A stretch of 64,000 bases of DNA from Nitrospirota bacterium (GTDB taxonomy: Bacteria; Nitrospirota; UBA9217), in the NCBI GenBank assembly GCA_963818475.1, contig CAWFSF010000006.1:896001-960000 (forward strand), read 5' to 3'. Position numbers and translations under genes: made by a program. Below, piece by piece: positions 3,001 to 13,180 of the stretch. The notes under the pieces are model-generated. The model was not told where the DNA came from and made no database searches. It was given only the letters and a program-made list of their open reading frames with translations. The first letter of the stretch is position 1. Each line of letters starts with the position of its first letter.

Positions 3001-6000
3001 TAACCGACGATATGCGCGCAGACATTGATTACTACAACGACCCGATCAAATACATCATCAAACCGCGGGAGATCAAGGTCTACGGAACCGCGAACAACAG
3101 ATCTCTTCGCTGGAGAACCTCAGGCTACGATGCAGCGGGCAATATGACAAGTCTCACGCTCCATAATACCGGTACGCCAGCGTCTGTCTCTACCATGTCC
3201 TATGATGATTACGGCAACATTCAGACCATCATAGATCCAGTTAATTACGCACTTACCTACAGCTACGATCAGACGACGTCAACGTATGTAACCGGCATCA
3301 TCGACAACTTTGCGACACCCTATTATTCCTCTGCCTCCTATAACCCGCTTTACGGGCAGATGCAGACGTCCGTTGACCTGAACATGAACATGGAGGCGAG
3401 GGGATACGACGAGTTCGGCAGGCTGATCTGCGTGTACGGACCGTATGATACGGTTCCTGTAGATCCCAACTCGTGCTCAGGCTCTCCGACCATAACCTTT
3501 GCTTACACGGCGCCTTTGGTCGCTTCGGATAATGACCTGAACGCTCCGGTCCATGCGGTTACGGTCAATAAGGCAATCTCGGCTAAGGGCACGAGCCCGA
3601 TCAACATCAAGACTGTCACGTACGCGGACGGCTTGAAACGCATCATTCAGACCAAGAAGGATGCAGATGTGTACGATGTAACGACAGGTCAGCCTGCCTA
3701 CGGTATGACCATCTCTGGTCTCGTCGCCTTCGACGAACTTGGCCGTGTTACGAGCCAGGGCCAGCCTGAATTCGAAGCTGGCTTCAATGAGGCATTCTCG
3801 GAGCTCGCAGCAACGAACCCGACATACTTCTCCTACGATATTCTCGATCGGACAACGCAGCTGCTTACACCTGATGACAAGGGGGACACGGACAGCGCCC
3901 GACCGGGCAAGTTCGCAAAAATAACGACCACGTATACGTTCGACTATTTCAACGGTAACCTCTACGCCAAGAGTGTTGTTGTAGATCCCGAAGGCAACCA
4001 TGTAATGGGCGCAAATTTCAGAGGCACCAAGGAAAGCTACCAGGACGTGGATGACCGGATCGTCGGCGTGGTCGAGTACAACAACGGCCATCTCATCAAC
4101 ACCGCTTACACCTACGATCCGCTTGGTCAGATCACCTCAGTAACGGACAACAAAGGCAATACCACCACAGTTGCCTATGACCAGGTCGGCAACAGGACTG
4201 AGATCAACAACCCGGATGCCGGCAAGACCACATACGGTTATGACGCTAACGGCAACATGACGAGCAAGCAGAACGGAAATAGCCAGAACATAGCGTACAA
4301 GTACACCTTCAACCGGTTAACTGACATAACGTACCCGCAAAGCACGACGGTGCATTATGACTACGGCCAAATGAATGAAGCCTTTAATCGCGCTGCAAGG
4401 ATCAAGCAGGTCACCGACGAGTCAGGCACCGAGTGGCGGTACTACGGCAGACTGGGCGAGACAATTCGTGAAGAGAAGATGGTGAATGCCCATACCCCGG
4501 CCGTGCAGAAGAAGAAGTATACCACTGACTACGTCTTCGACTCCTTCGGCAGAATGTGGGAGATGACCTATCCCGACGGCGAAACGCTGCACTACGCCTA
4601 CGACAAGGGCGGTCTGCTCAAGGCTGCCTGGGGCGAGAAGACGAGCAACAGGTATAACTATGTGAACAATCTCTACTATGACAAGTTTGCCCAGAGGGTC
4701 TATATCGAGTATGGGAACAAGACGAAAACAATCTACACCTACAACGACAAGACCAGAAGACTGGCAACACTCGACACGAATCTCAAGGGCGGGCAGTACA
4801 TACAGAAGCTGGGCTACACCTACGACCTTGTCGGCAACGTCAAAACTCTGCTGAACAACATCGCCATACCCACGAGCACTGCGCTCCCGGCAGGCCCTGT
4901 TCATCAAGAGTTTCTCTATGATGATCTTTACCAGATTACGAATGCAGAGGGTGGCTACACGTACAATGAGCACCCGAGGACTTCTGATGGCAAAACTACT
5001 ATCAGTCCGAATAAGTGGAATAATTATCACAACGATTTCACTTATGACACTATCGGCAACATGACCCAGAAGGTCCAGGTCAACCAGATCATTCAGCCGT
5101 CGACTACCGCGCTCCTTCCGAAGAAGACGAACTACGTGCTCAACTATGCTTATGATGCGAGCAAGCCGCATGCCGTGATTGACGATGGAGCAAAAACGTA
5201 CTCCTACGATCCGGCAGGCAACATGACCGGCTGGCAGGACAAGAACTCGGGCCAGAAGCGGACGATCAAATGGAACGAAGAGAACAGAGTTAAGGAGATC
5301 GACGACAACGGCAAGGCCACGTACTTCCTTTATGATGACGCCGGTGAACGCGTCGCCAAGAGAGGCCAGTACGGCGAGACGATCTATATCAACCGGTTCT
5401 ATGCAATAAAGAACGGAGAACTCGGAACCAAGCACGTTTTCGCCGGCGAGACGAGAGTGCTTTCGAAGGTGGTAAAGACACCGCCTACGACAACGGCAAA
5501 CAGCTCGACAACTACATCCACAACCTCGAATGTGACTTCAAGCACGACATCGACAATACCCGGCATAAACGGGTTAGACAACGGCAGGGGTAAGAAGCTC
5601 GGTATCATCAAGCGCCTGGGAGACGGTTATGTGTCAGGCATCACCCAGCCAGTCGAGAAAGATGAGTTCTATTACCATACAGACCATCTCGGCTCGAGCA
5701 ACATGATCACTGACGCATATGGCGATGTGTATCAGCATCTCGAGAACTTCCCGTATGGTGAGAGCTGGATCGAGGAAGGTGGCAGCCATGGTGGTAATCT
5801 GCCGGGATACAAGTTCACCGGCAAGGAGCTTGATCCGGAGACTAATCTGTACTATTATGGTGCACGGTACTATGATCCAGTCTTGAGCAAGTGGATTAGT
5901 GCGGATCCGATATTGGGAAAATATCTCAATGGTAAAGGAGAGAACTCGATTTATCAACCCGAAGTCCTGGCCCTCTTTAGTTATGCGCACCTTAACCCTA

Positions 6001-6659: not shown

Positions 6660-7186
6660 TGAACAAAAAAATTGCAACTGCCATAATTGTAATTATTTCT
6701 TGTAGTCTAGGATTTGTTGCCGGTTACTTCACAAATTCTTTCATTCAGTTTTCTAGATCTTCGGGCATTTCCGAAAAGAGAATGAATGAACTTACTCGCG
6801 GACCATGTGAAGTACGGTTAAGAGGGATAAATGATCCTGTAATTAAATTGTTGCAAAAGGCTTATAATCTGCAAGAGACTGAACACGAAGATCTTGAGAT
6901 TAAGTCGATAAACGAATGCAGGTTTAACTATGTTTTGGAGTCAGATTTCCAAGGCGTTGCTAAAGTAATTTTTTCCCCAAGATCAAAAGGGGTCAATCGA
7001 GTTGAATTTTATAGTCGGAATGACGATTCTTTGTGGACGATGAGCGGGCCTAGTTTTGTTGCTTCCCTCTTTTCTGACGACAAACGGAACTATTTATATG
7101 ACGGATTTCGAGGCCGAATGTACGTAATGGAGAAAAATAATATTTCATCTTTTAAAGAAATCGGACAAGGGGCCCATATTAAGTAA
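6659..7186 (+). CDS. Putative immunity protein of the RHS toxin (N-terminal hydrophobic/signal segment)
   Basis: TAATG stop/start overlap with the RHS gene; AT-rich like the toxin tip; 175 aa. Confidence 0.6.
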   Translation: MNKKIATAIIVIISCSLGFVAGYFTNSFIQFSRSSGISEKRMNELTRGPCEVRLRGINDPVIKLLQKAYNLQETEHEDLEIKSINECRFNYVLESDFQGVAKVIFSPRSKGVNRVEFYSRNDDSLWTMSGPSFVASLFSDDKRNYLYDGFRGRMYVMEKNNISSFKEIGQGAHIK

Positions 7187-7187
7187 G

Positions 7188-7223
7188 ACAATCTTGGGGA
7201 CATCCTATAGCCCCCTTGTCAAG
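7188..7223. repeat. 36-bp motif ACAATCTTGGGGACAT-N-TGTCAAG (copy 1; copy 2 at 11046-11081)
   Basis: First 16 nt and last 7 nt are identical between 7188-7223 and 11046-11081; CAATCTTGGGGAC also recurs at 7227-7239. Confidence 0.8.
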
Positions 7224-7263
7224 TGGCAATCTTGGGGACGTTGTTACTTACATTGCAAAACAC

Positions 7264-7292
7264 TTGACATCGCCATTAGAAGTCGATAATAT
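7264..7292 (+). promoter_or_regulatory. Sigma70-like promoter of the RAYT gene
   Basis: TTGACA at 7264-7269 and a GATAAT/TAATAT -10-like box at 7285-7292, just before the ATG at 7299. Confidence 0.5.
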
Positions 7293-7298
7293 TCCTTC

Positions 7299-8291
7299 AT
7301 GCCGCGTCACGCTCGCTTAGACGCCCCCGGCGCCTTGCACCACATCATGGTCCGGGGGATCGATAAGTCAAACATCTTTCGCGATGCAGAGGACAAAGCC
7401 CGCTTTCTTGAGCGTCTTGGGCAAAACGTTCAGGGCTCCAAATGTTCAATATACGCCTGGGTGCTCATGGACAACCATGTTCACCTGCTATTCCGAAGCG
7501 GCCAAGACGGCATCTCAGCCGTCATGAGAAAACTCCTTACCTGGTACGCCCAATACTTTAACCGCAGGCACGGCCGGAAGGGGCATCTGTTCGAAAACCG
7601 GTACAAATCCATCCTCTGCGACGAAGACAACTATCTCCTTGCCCTTGTCCGCTACATCCATCTTAATCCCGTTCGAGCAAAAATCATCCAGACCATGGCA
7701 GAGATGGACAAATACCCCTGGAGCGGCCATCGTGCCGTGATAGAAAAGGCAAAGTACCCGTGGATGGACACGGCAACAGTATTGTCACAGTTCGGAGGCA
7801 CGAAAAGAAAAGCCAGGAATGAATATCGGCGGTTTATGCAGGAGGGCATGGATCAGGGACACGATCCCCAGTTTTCCGGCGGCGGACTTGTTCGGAGCCT
7901 CGGCGGGTGGTCCAATGTCCTCTCTATGAGACGGAAAGGCCATAAGGAGGAAACGGACGAGCGGATCCTTGGAAGCGGCGATTTCGTACATCAAGTCATA
8001 AAAGAAGCGGAAGAGAAGTCGCTGCGGCAGATGAAACTCAAAAGATCGGGGCTGACCCTGATAAAGATCGTCGAGCAGGAATGTAGAAAAGGGCAGGTCA
8101 GCCGGATGGAACTGGAGAGCGGCAGCCGGCGGTCTAAAGTAAGTCAAGCGCGTGCACAGATCGCACGACGCGGCATGAAAGAGCTCGGCCTTTCGGCCGC
8201 AGAGGTTGCGCGACATCTTGGCGTAGCCACATCAAGCATAACGCGGGCAGTTAATAAAATCGAGATTCGAGATACAATGCAACGTAAGTAA
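7299..8291 (+). CDS. REP-associated tyrosine transposase (RAYT, Y1_Tnp HUH) with C-terminal HTH
   Basis: MPRHARLDAPGALHHIMVRG, LMDNHVHLL (HUH), RYIHLNPVRA, YPWS, C-terminal HTH (LSAAEVARHLG). Confidence 0.9.
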   Translation: MPRHARLDAPGALHHIMVRGIDKSNIFRDAEDKARFLERLGQNVQGSKCSIYAWVLMDNHVHLLFRSGQDGISAVMRKLLTWYAQYFNRRHGRKGHLFENRYKSILCDEDNYLLALVRYIHLNPVRAKIIQTMAEMDKYPWSGHRAVIEKAKYPWMDTATVLSQFGGTKRKARNEYRRFMQEGMDQGHDPQFSGGGLVRSLGGWSNVLSMRRKGHKEETDERILGSGDFVHQVIKEAEEKSLRQMKLKRSGLTLIKIVEQECRKGQVSRMELESGSRRSKVSQARAQIARRGMKELGLSAAEVARHLGVATSSITRAVNKIEIRDTMQRK

Positions 8292-8907
8292 CAACGTCCC
8301 GAAAGTTCGCATTGTATGTCGTGTCTATCTGCAGTTAATAATAGAATTTCTAGCTCCGGGGTTTTCTGGCAGCGCTTGGATTCGTAATATCATTGTTTTA
8401 TGTTGGCAGAGCTGCCGAAGCCTTACGGGGCTTTAGTACGTTTCTTTTGTTCGCGTTCCTTGGAATTGCAGTTCTAAGGGCAGTCGGATTGATTTCTGGT
8501 GAGCCAGTTTCGTTCTAGGAAGAAAGAAAAGTAGGGACCCGAACGAGTTCATGCGCCATTCAAGCTACAAGGGGTCATTGGGGTCACTTCTTTACGGGTT
8601 GTTGCTCAAATGACTTTTCACAATCGGTTAAGCGCCTTGATGCAAAAAAAGTCTAAGCTAACGATAGGGAAATACCGGTTCTGTCTCTGGGGAAAGCTCA
8701 AACTGAGCGAGCCGGAGGCCTTTACCTCTGTTCTTTGAACAACGAGCTGCCTTGCTGCAGCTGCTTTCTTCGGCTTCGATACATGCGCTATCAGCACTTG
8801 GATATTTTGGATGGCACATTTTACAGTATAGATAAGGAAGCCGATAACGACAACGTATTGAAATTCATTAACACGAAAAGAACAGGATGAAAACGAGGAT
8901 ATGCAAG

Positions 8908-9308
8908 GAGCGAACTGCGGGATAATGAGACGTTCGCCAGGGCGCAGGGCGGGCGACATGTACGGACCTGGCGGCGGTCCAATGGCAACAGGAAAGGTCA
9001 TAGGTAAAGGACGACGGACTGGAGCCGCGATGTCGACATCGAGTCGCAAACGAGCGGAAGAGAAGTCAGGCGGCACAGGGAACTCGAACAGCGGGGCTGA
9101 CGCGGACAAACTCGACGGAGCGAGGAATGTAGCAAGGCCTCGTCAGCCGGCTGCGGGAGGCGAATCCCGACGGTCCAGGTACGTCAGGCCGCTCAGGGAG
9201 CAGACGCTTCTTGAAGGACTCGCATTCGGCCGGCAAAGCCCGCGCCATCGAGCCTTATCAAAACCGTATCGGGTTCCCCTGGCAAAGGAACGCTCCATTA
9301 GATGTTGT
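8908..9308. other. ~400-bp nested inverted-repeat element (structured ncRNA, MITE or attC-like site)
   Basis: Paired segments 8923-8935/9288-9300, 8936-8942/9277-9283, 8962-8971/9175-9184 and 9095-9102/9141-9148; palindrome at 9028-9041. Confidence 0.5.
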
Positions 9309-9357
9309 CTGGTTTTGATGTCATAACGTGCATTGGCTGATCGACTGATTGCACGCA

Positions 9358-10345
9358 TGCGCTCCAGGACATCCTGCCGGAGATGACGCTAGCGATTCAT
9401 ACCGGTTCCTGGCTTTACTCCGCATCGCACCGTTGTTGGTATCTTCGGTCATTGCTCGCTCGAGTGATACGACTCACTCGGCGGGGGAAAAAACAGTTTG
9501 TGGCGTCTGCAGCACGGTTCACCGGACCTTTTACGATCATAAGATCAAGCGGGTCCGTGATCTTTCTAATGGCGATGCCCGCATCTATCTGGAACTACCG
9601 GTACGACGAGTCCAGTGCCGGAGGTGCGGTAAGGTGAAACAAGAGAAGCTGGCGTTTCTGGCAGACAGTCCGTTTTATACCAAGCGCTTTGCCTTCTATA
9701 TCGGCAAGCGGTGCAGCACCTCAACGATCAAGGATGTTGCCAAAGAGTTTCATCTTGACCGAAGAGCCGTCAAAGAACTCGAAATGCAGTACATGCGGGA
9801 GAAGCTTCGTCGGGCTGGAAACCCCGGACCGAAAGTTATCGGTATCGACGAAATCTCGATCCGCAAGGGCCATACGTACCGGATCGTAGTCAGCGACCTG
9901 GAGCGGCGGCGGCCAATCTGGTTCGGAGGTGAAGACCGCTCGGAAGAAAGCCTAAACTGCTTCTTCGACGAGTTGGGGCCGAAAAAGGCTAGCAAAATAC
10001 GCCTTGCGGTCATGGACATGTGGAAGCCTTTTGAAAAGTCCACACGTCAAGAAAGCTCCGCAGGCAGCCATTCTCTACGACAAGTTCCATATCATAAGGC
10101 ACCTGAACGATGCCTTGGACAAAATTAGAAAGAGCGAATATGCCAGACTGACCGGCAACAGTCGTAAGTTCATCAAGGGTCAGAAATATACGCTTCTCTC
10201 GCATCGCGAGAATCTTACGACGGATGGGAGAAGATCGTTAAAGACGCTTTTGACTGCTAACAAGCGGCTAAACACTGCCTATATCCTTAAAGAGGAGTTC
10301 GGGCAGCTCTGGGACTATCAGTCAGAAGCCTGGGCCAGAAAGTAA
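9358..10345 (+). pseudogene. ISL3-family transposase, frameshifted and 3'-truncated
   Basis: CxxC zinc-finger motifs (CGVC, CRRC), IGIDEISIRKGHTY, VMDMWKPF, YDKFHIIRHLNDALD; ends abruptly at 10345. Confidence 0.9.
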
Positions 10346-10751
10346 AATCCTATTTGGTTCGAATCTGAAACGGATCCGTTGGCGTCAGATAACCAAATTA
10401 GGGAGGCAGAAAAACGATTAAAATTAAAATTTTCGATTGAATATGCTCAATTTTTAAAAATTATGGCGGCGGCTATTTTGCATTCGTCAATGTTTTTTCT
10501 GTTGATCCCACCAGTGAGTGGGACATAGTAAAACGTAATTCGAACATCATAGGAAAACCGACTTCCTTGCCATTCCAGACGATGAATCAGGCGGTTATTA
10601 TGGTTTTATAGTAACTAACAATGTTCGTGAATCAAAGATTGTGTACTTCGAATTTGAAGAGGGTAAGGTATTGCGTGAGCCGGTTTATGAAAATTTGTTT
10701 GACTATCTTGTCAAGGTAGGATGTAGAAAAAACGGCGAAACAAAGGAATAA
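10346..10751 (+). pseudogene. Orphan SMI1/KNR4 (SUKH) immunity protein, 5'-truncated, two frameshifts (not in ORF track)
   Basis: Manual translation: NPIWFESETDPLASDNQIREAEKRLKLKFSIEYAQFLK/YGGGYFAFVNVFSV.../DFLAIPDDESGGYYGF...IVYFEFEEG...YENLFDYL. Confidence 0.8.
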
Positions 10752-10786
10752 CGTTGGAGGGCTAATGGGGTTGTTTTGGCTCAGCG

Positions 10787-11045
10787 TGAATTGGACTTTC
10801 AGCCGATTTGAGATAAACTATCTCGAACGGAGGAAGGTCCATGCGAAAAAAGCGTCACAATTACACACCCGAGGAGAAGGTTGCGATCCTCAAGCGTCAT
10901 CTGGTCGAACAGGTCCCGATCTCAGACCTATGCGACAAGTATCAGTTGCAACCAACGGTCTTCTGCCACTGGCAGAAGCAGTTCTTTGAAAACGGTGCGG
11001 CAGCCTTCACTCAAGGCAAGGATCCCAAGCGCCAAGAAACCCAGC
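10787..11045 (+). pseudogene. IS3-family left end and truncated orfA
   Basis: MRKKRHNYTPEEKVAILKRHL...LCDKYQLQPTVFCHWQKQFFENG (HTH_Tnp_1-like) from 10841; the sequence changes at the motif starting 11046; left boundary approximate. Confidence 0.8.
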
Positions 11046-11081
11046 ACAATCTTGGGGACATACTATATAGCTCCTGTCAAG

Positions 11082-11378
11082 AGACCCTTTATTTTGCATG
11101 ATTTTCAATAAGATAATTTTCTGCATCAACTAAGAACACAGTTTTCCTTCCGGCATTCCTGCCGCTATCGCTTTATCGGCGAGTCTCTCGCATTCAGGCG
11201 AACGACGGCTTAATCGTTATATCTATCCGGCGTGCATGGCCGCCAAGAATACCTTATCCAGATTCCATCGTTCAAACGAGAGGCACTGTATTGTCCCGCA
11301 CGAGGTCAACTGCCCTCAACGTTGATGCTCGGGCTCTTGCCGAAATCGTTTTTGTGCTTCAGGATCATGCCGCTTTTT
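11082..11378 (-). ncRNA. Candidate bridge/seek RNA in the downstream non-coding end of the IS110
   Basis: Minus-strand ATCAACGTT (11318-11326) equals the left target flank (12805-12813). GGGACAATAC (11288-11297) is approximately the reverse complement of the right flank. A GAGG/CCTC stem separates them. RNA boundaries are unknown. Confidence 0.6.
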
Positions 11379-12660
11379 TCAGCGTTTTCGGATCCTCCTG
11401 CTTGAGATATTTTGGATCGAAGATTCTTTCTTCTTCATCAGCGTCCATGCGATGATCAAGAGTTTTGCGGCGAGCTTGACACGCATCTTTGTGCCGATCC
11501 CTTTCTCCCGCCCGGCCTTTGAGCTTGTTCGTAAAGTAGGCGATGAAGTCCTTGTTCTTGGCGAGGCGATAAGCGCCGCCTGATACAGTCCATACCGGAG
11601 GTCGGCCTTACCCTGTTTGGAGATGACCGGTATCGCGCTGTTTGACTTCTTGCCGCTCCGGTTCGCGCAAAGGCCAAGACCGGCCATTTTCAAGACCTGC
11701 TTCGCGTCGTAAACCGCTGAGGATTACCGATGGCCCCCAGGACTTTCGAAGAGATATCCGGCCCGAATCCCGGAATGCTCAGAAGGTACGTATACTCGGG
11801 AAACTCCAGGCAAGCATCCTCGATCTTGTCTTCCACTGACTTGATGCTTTGGCGAAGCTGCTTCAAACTGTCCACCATGACCTGCGCTTCGAAAAAAGGC
11901 CTCTCCATGGTGACAGATGGATCAACCGCGGCCCTCCAGATCTTGCCACCTTGCGGCCCTTGGATAGCTCATTGTGCCCGGCGCGACGGTACGGCAGAAG
12001 TCATCGTATTCCATGCCAGCGATCTCCGACGGATCGAGGCATTCCCTCACTACTGCCAGGGTTTCCGAGGGACCATAGTGTTGGTCCAGCTCGGGAAATA
12101 CTGCGCGAGGAGTTGGTTGCGAATGCACGCGCTTAAGCCGTGTTCCCGTTTCTTCAGCCGCCGTTTAAGCGCGTTGAGTATACGTACGTTCCGCAGCGTC
12201 ATCAGGGGGTATTCGTAAAACAGGCACTTTCCCTGGGAGATGAGATCGGCGACATTTGCAGCGTCTTTAACGTCATGCTTGTCCCAGCGGCCGTCCAGAA
12301 GCGGCCAGTTGTTCTTGACCGCGACGCCTCCCACAAGAACAACCATGTGCCCGCATTTGATCAGATGCTCCGCCAGGGGCTTGTGATAGTTTGCTGTCGG
12401 CTCGATGCCGAAAACGACTACCGTCAGGCTGTATTGAACTTTTATTCGCTCGACATAAGCGAGCAGCTTTTGAAAGCCTTCAAGCGTATTGTCAAAAACC
12501 AGATTCTTAACCAGAGTTTTGCCACGTGCCGTGCCGAAAAAAGCGTTATGTTTTTCCTTAGCCGCATCAATGCCGACGATCAAATGCTTATCCGAACCGC
12601 GAATCTCTTTCTTCAGTTGAAGAAACTGCTCAAGTCTGATATCATCTACATAGTTCTATA
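11379..12660 (-). pseudogene. IS110-family recombinase (DEDD RuvC + Tnp20), multiple frameshifts
   Basis: LIVGIDAAKEKH, FGIEPTANYH, KHDVKDAANVA, LLSIPGFGP, AGLGL...SGK, ISKQGKADLRYGLYQAA; RBS AGGAGG at ~12665-12670. Confidence 0.9.
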
Positions 12661-12831
12661 GAAGCCTCCTGTCTCTTGAATTTAGTTCCGTCATAAACTA
12701 ATTCTTAGCAAGAGGTTTCTGTTTTGGGTAGCTTATGAAAAAATATTCTTTCAGCTATACTGCTTGATTCACCTATGCTCTTTCTACTATACTTTCTACT
12801 ATATAACGTTGATACCTAGCAAGCATTTAGC

Positions 12832-12952
12832 TTGACAAACCCTACCCTATTTAAAATCACCCCATGCCACGCCAAGCGAGACTCGACGTACCCGGAGCCC
12901 TGTGGGGGCATTGGGGTCACTGAGATACAATGCAACATAAGTAACAACGTCC
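12832..12952 (+). mobile_element. Internally deleted second RAYT element (mini-RAYT)
   Basis: TTGACA at 12832; ATG 12864 encodes MPRQARLDVPGAL (RAYT N-terminus); then GGGGGCATTGGGGTCAC; 12922-12952 matches the RAYT right end 8269-8299 at 30/31 nt. Confidence 0.8.
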
Positions 12953-13180
12953 GTACGCAGTAACAACTGATTATCTTGCGAGTTCAAGTCCCGTCCGAGG
13001 AATTGTCCGTACACCTCGATAGCACGAGGGAGCGGCATCTGAGCAATCGGGACGTATGGGATTTCCCCAAGGTAACCTATAACGCTGATCGGATCCTGCA
13101 ACTGTTGAGACCCCGCCCCACCATAGCCCTTTCCGAAAAAAAGCTTGCAACAACTCAGTAAAATCAGTAATATACACCTC

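Follow-up and report, generated by a model that had tools for sequence, protein, structure and literature searches.

The tail of an RHS toxin locus in a Nitrospirota bacterium (contig CAWFSF010000006.1) is very probably a graveyard of transposons of known kinds, and not a new machine for gene capture. We analysed a window of 64,000 nt from this 4.66-Mb genome (labelled G000, with contigs C1, C2, C5 and C6; relatives carry other G numbers), in which GGGG[AT]C-type motifs recur between 7188 and 13115, just downstream of the RHS gene and its putative immunity gene. The original prediction was that an HUH nuclease encoded there uses these motifs to capture and shuffle gene cassettes. In our reading, the motifs instead mark the tips of mobile elements. 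Two copies of a TIRtron, a unit in which a Y1 HUH transposase gene (TIRYT) is flanked by terminal inverted repeats (TIRs), would have landed behind the toxin/immunity pair, at the right end, now decayed, of a variable island of ~57 kb. An insertion sequence (IS) of the IS110/IS1111 type would insert between GGGGAC and GTNG in the TIRtron tip. The motif at 7189 would thus be half a tip plus an IS now down to 24 nt, the motif at 11047 half a tip plus a dead IS of 1748 nt, and the motif at 7227 an uninterrupted tip. The remaining motifs would be other ends, namely an IS5/IS1182-like repeat at 8580, its footprint at 12904, and a right TIR (TIR-R) followed by an intron fragment at 12952/12953. We infer this order of events (pieces in Table 1).

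The motifs lie exactly where they had been placed, and the observation is real, but it is heterogeneous and was confirmed in part. The 13-mer CAATCTTGGGGAC occurs at 7189, 7227 and 11047 (three matches versus 0.11 expected; none of 100 shuffles reached three), GTCCC at 8296-8300, GTCC at 12949-12952 and TGAGACCCC at 13106-13114, while GGGG(T/G)CATTGGGGTCAC at 8571 and 12904 forms an 18-nt pair with 17 of 18 positions identical. Enrichment of the generic motif was not found: the window contains 48 GGGG[AT]C sites versus 72.4 ± 8.7 expected, and genome-wide GGGGAC (1711) and GGGGTC (1811) are the rarest or nearly the rarest words of the same composition. Seven of the 48 sites fall within 7188-13115, where about 4.4 would be expected pro rata. 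Since the generic hexamer is depleted, the signal resides in longer repeats with a common GGGG-tip. What had been taken for a single class of motif comprises the ends of different longer repeats, that is, a 36-nt repeat shared by 7188 and 11046, a 26-nt inverted repeat and the terminal repeat of another IS. A further 31-nt repeat pair (8269-8299 and 12922-12952) is 97% identical. Genome-wide, at least 24 of the 66 TTGGGGAC sites fall in TIRtron repeats or IS junctions.

An HUH enzyme is indeed linked to the motif, as the inverted repeats on either side of such Y1 transposase genes carry GGGG[AT]C at their tip. The protein encoded by TIRtron copy 1 matches Pfam Y1_Tnp above the cut-off (5.9e-13), and its HUH motif (HVH) and catalytic tyrosine (RYIHLNP) are intact and kept in all five proteins aligned, which include paralogs and orthologs. 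A PDB sequence search with this protein gave no matches at E<=0.01. It had earlier been designated a RAYT; with its C-terminal helix-turn-helix (HTH) and flanking 26-nt inverted repeats (92% complementary), it is a TIRYT and not a REP-linked RAYT. Terminal inverted repeats replace the REP hairpins, and the same layout was found at the paralogs C1:262716/263796. In a paralog, both HTH_28 and HTH_23 were detected above their cut-offs.

The TIRtron measures ~1.07 kb, with terminal repeats of ~26-30 nt and the outer tip (A/T)C(T)TTGGGGAC. In G005 (82%), G011 (78%) and G002 (93%, up to the contig end), conservation spans precisely the unit between and including its two repeats, amid unrelated flanks, which argues, indirectly, that it may move as a whole. 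The genome contains 11 Y1_Tnp matches, repeats of family A (TTGGGGACGTTGTTACTTAC) and family B (ATTGGGGTCAGACTTTAGAATTGACATT), and a few gene-less repeat doublets, for example at C2:794124-794197 and C6:743099-743192. Scanning with a family-A 17-mer (up to three mismatches) gave 18 matches, about a dozen of them real, and the repeats are not self-complementary REPs.

RAYT-like genes between terminal inverted repeats were named TIRYT, and the units TIRtrons, by Di Nocera, De Gregorio & Rocco in 2013, with the repeat motif GGGGWSAS in most, not all, cases (PMC3733652; this and the other papers cited by PMC number were available in part, and our statements refer to those parts). TIRYTs form TnpA-Y1 subclass 2.1, with tails resembling Bac_DnaA_C, HTH_23 or HTH_28 (Quentin et al. 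2018, PMC6006769). As in published TIRtrons, the Y1 HUH protein of the window is longer than RAYTs, ends in an HTH and lies between TIRs instead of REP hairpins with a GGGG-W-S tip; the family-B tip GGGGTCAG fits GGGGWSAS at all eight positions. Several diverged copies per genome together with a few gene-less doublets are likewise shared. Unlike in the available parts of these two accounts, where such features are unmentioned, several copies here lie beside RHS loci and have been struck by an IS110-type element.

Short tandem arrays of repeat half-tips, such as repeated CATCTTGGGGACGTAACGAGAA and GGGGACTATTGGGGGACTATTGGGGTCAG, were seen at C5:187933-187980, C6:872500-872550 and, in reverse complement, around 5590-5700 of locus L009 in G003. 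In addition, sediment-metagenome contigs from two runs join a TIR-L-like sequence (left TIR) to a TIR-R-like sequence, with ~35 or an unknown number of letters in place of window 7260-8275. These joints are gene-less doublets of the window's TIRtron family in other organisms, with short matching sides of 21-24 nt.

REPIN/RAYT systems, reportedly treated by Nunvar in 2010, invite comparison. They share with the TIRtron a Y1 HUH gene between inverted copies of a short repeat that is also found as gene-less doublets (Bertels 2017, PMC5581495). However, RAYTs are typically single-copy and accompanied by tens to hundreds of REPINs (PMC5581495), unlike the 11 Y1_Tnp matches and roughly a dozen family-A repeats counted here, and the repeats of the window are terminal inverted repeats, not palindromic REPs.

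The element that interrupts the TIRtron tips belongs to the IS110/IS1111 type. Full copies of one subtype, t1 (1738 nt), lie at C2:737277 and C6:870295, each with a 443-aa transposase gene on the opposite strand, and the 36-nt repeat of the window is the end of this IS. The broken frames of the window copy still match Pfam DEDD_Tnp_IS110 (5.7e-18) and Transposase_20, and the full t1 transposase is 55.7% identical to the window copy over residues 10-334. The window subtype itself recurs as 84-87% identical copies in G016 (n=4) and G009. A ~310-nt non-coding region (NCR) lies downstream of the transposase frame, versus at most ~140 nt upstream. With a slash marking each junction, the window copy reads GGGGAC/ATAC...TATAAC/GTTG, and all eight complete insertion sites, from three genomes, read ...GGAC/IS/GTNG. 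The left flank was GGGGAC in six of the eight, and the right flank was GTTG in five, GTAG in two and GTGG in one. Insertion at all eight was sequence-specific and orientation-specific and produced no target duplication. The IS end was found in 23 of 64 family genomes; among the 30 loci listed out of 77 matches, AC precedes the IS tip in every case and GGGGAC in 16. The uninterrupted target is visible at 7227-7245 as an intact repeat tip. Since the IS inserts between GGGGAC and GTNG within the tip, CAATCTTGGGGAC at 7189 and at 11047 is the outer half of a tip fused to an IS end.

At about 229-269 of the IS NCR, GTCCC(C) corresponds to the left flank read on its bottom strand, and ACGT(T/A)G... 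to the top strand where it spans the junction. Three G016 copies carry an ACGTAG-type variant (ACGTAGTGTCC; flanks GTAGTGTCT, GTGGTGTCC and GTAGTGTCC); their right flanks are GTAG, GTGG and GTAG, with an exact match of 11 nt in one copy. The corresponding segment of the window copy is ACGTTGAT, with the flank GTTGATAC. Rfam gave no family for the NCR, either in the window copy (E<=1) or in a full copy (gathering score). In IS1111-type elements the NCR lies downstream and gives rise to a seekRNA that matches both strands of the target over short stretches, and ISPa11 targets REPs (Siddiquee et al. 2024, PMC11187229); ISPpu9 is another REP-targeting member (PMC8450116). The window element resembles these seekRNA- or bridge-RNA-guided IS1111/IS110 elements in its DEDD transposase, its long downstream NCR, oriented insertion at one short site without target duplication, NCR matches to both target strands, and the choice of another element's repeat as target. 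By this analogy it may be RNA-guided as well. It differs in that it targets a TIRtron repeat tip and not a REP, attC site or Tn21 end, and in that its guide RNA is putative, read from the DNA alone. Targeting of TIRtron repeats by IS110/IS1111 elements is not mentioned in the available parts of PMC3733652 and PMC6006769, and homing of such an element to TIRtron tips appears to be unreported in the literature searched here.

Beside another TIRYT gene, a repeat reading TTTGGGGAC^GTTGTGTCCTAAGTG is split by a 2.4-kb insert (C5:404177-406592), whose tips ATCCTATAC... and ...TGATATATAAC resemble IS110-type tips. In place of a DEDD transposase, this insert encodes a 517-aa AAA_16/ORC-CDC6-like ATPase and a 164-aa open reading frame (ORF); it may be a cargo-bearing derivative moved in trans. 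As a separate observation, the last codons of the immunity gene (7164-7178) and the IS remnant at 7206-7220 show 87% complementarity across 15 nt, by chance or as a terminator-like hairpin.

Table 1. Features of the RHS locus and its tail, in window coordinates.
Feature	Position	Strand	Evidence or remarks
RHS-repeat toxin gene, 1387 aa	2496..6659	+	Pfam RHS_repeat 5.1e-19, TcdB_toxin_midN
Putative immunity gene, 175 aa	6659..7186	+	Start overlaps RHS stop codon; role from position only
Solo outer tip of TIRtron inverted repeat, ACAATCTTGGGGAC	7188..7201	+	Repeat analysis; left half of IS110-type target
24-nt remnant of NCR end of IS t1 (downstream of transposase gene)	7202..7225	+	100% identical to tip of full copies
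TIR-L, TIRtron copy 1	7226..7257	+	7232-7257 pairs with 8278-8303; leads into TTGACA promoter-like box
TIRYT gene, 330 aa, Y1 HUH transposase domain and C-terminal HTH	7299..8291	+	Pfam Y1_Tnp; paralog/ortholog alignment
TIR-R, TIRtron copy 1	8278..8303	+	26-nt inverted repeat; includes GTCCC 8296-8300
AT-rich piece, 267 nt, with 54-aa hydrophobic ORF	8304..8570		No repeat or Pfam match
3' end fragment of IS5/IS1182-like IS, terminal repeat GGGGTCACTTCTTTACGGG...	8580..9391	-	Identity to C1:342042-342452
ISL3-family transposase fragment, frameshifted, C-terminally cut	9392..10345	+	Zn_ribbon_ISL3, HTH_Tnp_ISL3, DDE_Tnp_ISL3
SUKH (SMI1/KNR4) immunity pseudogene, three frames, N-terminally cut	10346..10751	+	Stop-to-stop ORFs; sub-threshold Pfam
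IS3-family left end and first ~68 orfA codons	10771..11045	+	HTH_Tnp_1; 89% identical to G003 IS3
Outer tip of TIR-L, TIRtron copy 2, ACAATCTTGGGGAC	11046..11059	+	Repeat analysis and junction comparison
IS110/IS1111-type element, window subtype, 1748 nt	11060..12807	-	Pfam; inserted within TIR-L of copy 2; transposase in at least three broken frames
TIRtron copy 2 remainder	12808..12952	+	Inner TIR-L variant, promoter-like box, 13 codons, filler, last 31 nt with TIR-R
Group II intron 5' fragment	12953..13048	+	91% identical to first ~98 nt of full 1.92-kb copies
Native intergenic flank upstream of DUF502 gene, includes TGAGACCCC at 13106	13079..13144	+	Alignment with three same-genus genomes

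The other motif copies are ends of other elements. GGGGTCAC at 8580 is the start of an IS5/IS1182-like terminal repeat, which forms inverted pairs elsewhere. The adjoining block 8595-9391 matches C1:342042-342452 at 99.6% and 95.6% identity, and the sequence there runs on into a 493-aa DUF772+DDE_Tnp_1_6 transposase encoded on the opposite strand. An extra ~370 nt within this fragment (8824-9195) contains a degenerate TIRYT-like stretch, of which 8991-9153 is 74.7% identical to 7933-8108. We had also considered GGGGTCACTTCTTTACGGG at 8580 as the left repeat of the ISL3 element and rejected this, since 8595-9391 is the IS5/IS1182-like 3' end and ISL3 begins at ~9392. The ISL3 fragment reaches profile position 168 of 240, and other copies continue beyond 10343. 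What follows it had been described as an orphan SMI1/KNR4 gene; it is a truncated pseudogene, whose SUKH matches (SUKH_5 3.6e-5, SUKH_6 8.5e-6) stay under the cut-offs. The break in IS3 orfA was found at 11045/11046, and the IS3 of G003 reads through this point.

The internal deletion that had been noted in a second RAYT-type gene is that of TIRtron copy 2 (12866-12952): the first 13 codons (12866-12903) are followed by an 18-nt filler (12904-12921), and the interior is lost. Judged by its likeness to the 8571-type junction of flank plus terminal repeat, the filler may be a footprint of such a junction. A ~96-nt group II intron fragment begins directly after TIR-R, at 12952/12953, with a weak Rfam match in the window itself. 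Six full 1.92-kb copies of this intron, 99.6-99.9% identical, lie at C6:241299, 266831, 268958, 271792 and 880828 and at C2:835843; all six follow ...GACC, with a hairpin visible upstream at C6:880828 and C2:835843. One full copy matches Rfam RF02005 and RF00029 and encodes a reverse transcriptase/maturase (RVT_1 and GIIM). Three near-identical copies within 5 kb (C6:266.8-271.8 kb) indicate that the intron was recently active. Group IIC introns sit after inverted repeats (PMC1702495), and here, too, the 5' end lies directly past one. Unlike in that class, the inverted repeat is a TIRtron end; ~96 nt are left. Rfam matched D1-D4-6, and IIC is a candidate class only. We rejected a tRNA-derived attachment site at 12960-13005 (T-loop-like GTTCAAGTCC), as ARAGORN found no tRNA in the window and the stretch is the 5' end of the intron.

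At the right, TGAGACCCC at 13106 had been read as the border of the island. The spacer upstream of the DUF502 gene in G003, G004 and G005, all of the same genus, aligns from 13079-13102 onwards, and since TGAGACCCC lies inside this conserved spacer it is native DNA and not a junction. At the module borders 9390/9391, 10343, 11045, 12951 and 13048, unrelated contigs from metagenomes also end or diverge, although some read on past 13048. The share of sampled words did not exceed 9% in any sequencing run, and no RNA run was listed. Pieces from one low-depth sequencing run were identical to the window. Contigs of four sequencing runs showed single modules only and no excision or variant-insert joints of the locus, the uncovered parts being uninformative.

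The RHS gene at the head of this tail may be the last part of a disrupted RHS/TcdB_midN-like gene of three consecutive ORFs. The two ORFs before it, 1-1734 and 1799-2494, seem to belong to one large gene with it, and in a relative it is matched by a single open frame of 3418 aa. No Pfam family was found below E 0.01 for the immunity ORF, and no orphan toxin tip was recognised in 7188-13115. Relative to G005, C6:852470-909070 (~56.6 kb) is an island, because in G005 a flank matching C6:850783-852469, where a gene of the present genome ends, is followed immediately by the DUF502 spacer; the first ~13.07 kb of the window are its right end. The locus does vary between genomes, as the original prediction supposed, and the corresponding place in G003, of the same genus, is occupied by another RHS island. 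The latter comprises an RHS gene whose tip is phospholipase-A2-like, a small gene, an IS end fragment of 427 nt, a TIRtron of family B, an RHS gene of 1440 aa and an amidase gene. Judging from these alignments, what varies is whole mobile elements and RHS genes. Like RHS loci with orphan tips and immunity genes, this one comprises an RHS gene, an overlapping small gene and a decayed SUKH gene downstream, with content that varies at the same place. Unlike in such loci, insertion sequences predominate in its tail.

At four places in the genome a TIRYT locus is found no more than 3 kb from an RHS locus, which is more often than chance predicts: in the window and at C1:301.8-306 kb, C5:185-195 kb and C5:626-636 kb, with TIRYT genes or fragments 1-3 kb downstream of RHS genes. 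A fifth RHS locus contains the left repeat of a family-B TIRtron and the first ~40 codons of its gene. In the relatives, 4 of 30 TIRYT-like matches, hand-picked by score and frame length among the matches listed, fall within ~5.3 kb of an RHS match (1 of 4 in G021, 1 of 3 in G050, 1 of 6 in G016 and 1 of 17 in G010), against a rough expectation of ~0.6; G021 and G050 belong to the same genus, and the proximity in relatives is only a hint. The proximity at all these loci could simply reflect RHS tails that tolerate insertion sequences. RHS-adjacent TIRYT genes in other genera were seen at G021:C5:100.9-103.9 kb and G050:C5:18.4-21.2 kb.

Many remnants of the IS110/IS1111-type element are one-sided. 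The NCR-end 110 nt of t1 occur in the two full copies and in six solo fragments (C1:303567, C5:179245, C5:187925, C5:609855, C5:633221 and window 7202-7225), whereas the transposase-end 110 nt occur in the two full copies and the window variant, with no solo fragment. All six solo ends thus keep the end of the presumed guide RNA, which is the one far from the TIRYT gene. The six truncated ends that we examined, five of the six in the genome and one in G003, all abut TIRtron sequence; a complete TIR-L follows in four and internal TIRYT sequence in two. The fragments share 97-100% identity with the live IS, and the truncation points lie at 24-29, 41-46, 86, 257, 296 and 350 nt here and at 427 nt in G003. 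Of 22 testable IS-end loci in other genomes, 13 are truncated too, with joints at GGGG-tipped repeats in some and not in others. Cross-genome searches with two 12-nt junction patterns gave 88 and 71 matches in 64 genomes, against ~60, by hand sum, for the reversed control of the first; that of the second was judged similar by eye. In G011, of another genus, the break in IS3 orfA falls within 2 nt of that in the window, and a TIRtron left repeat is joined to it there as well (locus L012, reverse complement, versus window 11030-11060); this joint is either an old shared composite or a preferred insertion site.

Several results sit uneasily with our reading of the tail as layered ends of known elements. 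The HTH of the window's TIRYT (residues 256-321) matches HTH_23 (2.6e-4) and Bac_DnaA_C (9.2e-4) under the gathering scores, and the family-A tip GGGGACGT fits GGGGWSAS at six of eight positions. The putative t1 guide GTTGTGTCC fits the G016 flanks at 8 of 9 positions and its own three sites at 5 to 7 of 9. We therefore dropped a co-variation of guide and target over 9 nt: cognate pairs are not uniquely best, so that the co-variation rests mainly on one position, and we kept the short match and this single co-varying position. By our estimate, a single 7-mer guide match is expected ~0.7 times by chance. No subterminal inverted repeats, which typify IS1111 proper, joining the first and last ~40 nt of the IS were present among the 25 longest of 45 pairs, a search that short or imperfect ones could escape, and IS1111 proper is for this reason only a candidate assignment. 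Moreover, our sequence of events does not account for the complete TIR-L, instead of its inner half, after the 24-nt IS remnant at 7202-7225, for the retention of the same end by all six solo fragments, or for the 267-nt piece at 8304-8570, which may have been left over from the original RHS tail.

Could the motifs nevertheless be the cutting sites of an HUH enzyme that pastes arbitrary DNA between them and so diversifies toxin and immunity genes in an integron-like way, without an integrase? We consider this very improbable. The motif is genuinely the tip of the HUH enzyme's repeats, six of the seven regional GGGG[AT]C sites lie within 10 nt of a module border, the locus differs between related genomes, and TIRYT loci lie near RHS loci beyond chance in this genome. 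As in integron attC arrays, a short motif recurs at the module borders of a variable locus. However, between the motifs every assignable piece is an IS or intron fragment or a pseudogene and none is a cassette, the 267-nt piece being the one unassigned, and two of the three CAATCTTGGGGAC copies are junctions of a DEDD-recombinase IS, not of the HUH enzyme. The motif is absent from the junctions at 9391, 10345 (as the original prediction had conceded), ~10771, 12807 and ~13048-13079. The generic motif is depleted genome-wide, and in the window no intact gene other than the TIRYT gene was found bracketed by two motif copies. Unlike in integron arrays, the modules are not intact promoterless genes, there is no single recombinase, and the borders come from at least five unrelated mobile elements. 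At the other extreme, the coincidences might be chance likenesses in a G+C-rich genome with no common cause. GGGGTCAC at 8580 does come from an unrelated DDE-type IS and TGAGACCCC at 13106 from the native flank, so the list is partly heterogeneous, but the excess of the 13-mer, the share of TTGGGGAC sites in TIRtron repeats or IS junctions and the recurrence of the junction in other genomes make pure chance hardly credible and, for the 13-mer, refute it.

A third explanation keeps the element ends of our favoured reading and adds an active TIRYT that nicks the edges of its own repeats, which would trigger adjacent deletions or copy-templated repair. An intact TIR-L would thereby end up fused to upstream DNA (the interior of the IS110-type element, IS3 orfA or the end of the immunity gene), and the tail would be remodelled without cassette capture. 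We regard this as rather unlikely. The sharp left terminus (G/A)CAAYMTTRGGGAC abuts four unrelated sequences, the truncated IS ends run into a complete TIR-L or internal TIRYT sequence in the proportions given above, and all six solo ends keep the side far from the TIRYT gene. We also read an 8-nt microhomology at two of four joints, GCAA(T)CTTG in the window and CATCTTGG in G003. Against this stand the scatter of the truncation points and, in other genomes, the lack of a repeat at the joint in 5 of the 12 truncated-end junctions listed. Ordinary decay with selection against an active transposase could look alike, and the 6-to-0 asymmetry is a small sample. The one-sided remnants, the orfA break and the proximity to RHS genes fit TIRYT-triggered deletion or repair and ordinary junkyard decay equally well. 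A broader and unlikely extension is that TIRtron tips are hubs of layered parasitism that actively remodel RHS toxin tails. Here, an RNA-guided IS110/IS1111-type element may be programmed to home into the tip of a Y1 unit, the same IS ends may carry non-transposase cargo into tips, as with the ATPase insert at C5:404177-406592, and tip nicking by TIRYT may drive one-sided deletions that fuse a seekRNA-bearing IS end to TIRtrons and erode toxin and immunity genes. If true, this would explain both why the solo ends are asymmetric and why TIRtrons cluster at RHS loci.

Under the favoured reading of the tail as a transposon graveyard, an integrase-free, HUH-driven integron is replaced by a concrete and testable anatomy, in which both the TIRtron and the IS elements are of known kinds. 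TIRtrons were named in 2013, and the available parts of PMC3733652 and PMC6006769 report no experiments on them. The locus and its relatives offer a natural set for such work: one intact unit, one that has lost its interior, repeat doublets without a gene, and orthologous units in other settings. That TIRtrons lie near RHS loci and that IS remnants are one-sided are modest leads rather than results. If the targeting of TIRtron tips is truly unreported, it would add a new natural class of targets for RNA-guided DEDD recombinases, and the apparent natural reprogramming between IS subtypes would be useful for engineering these enzymes.

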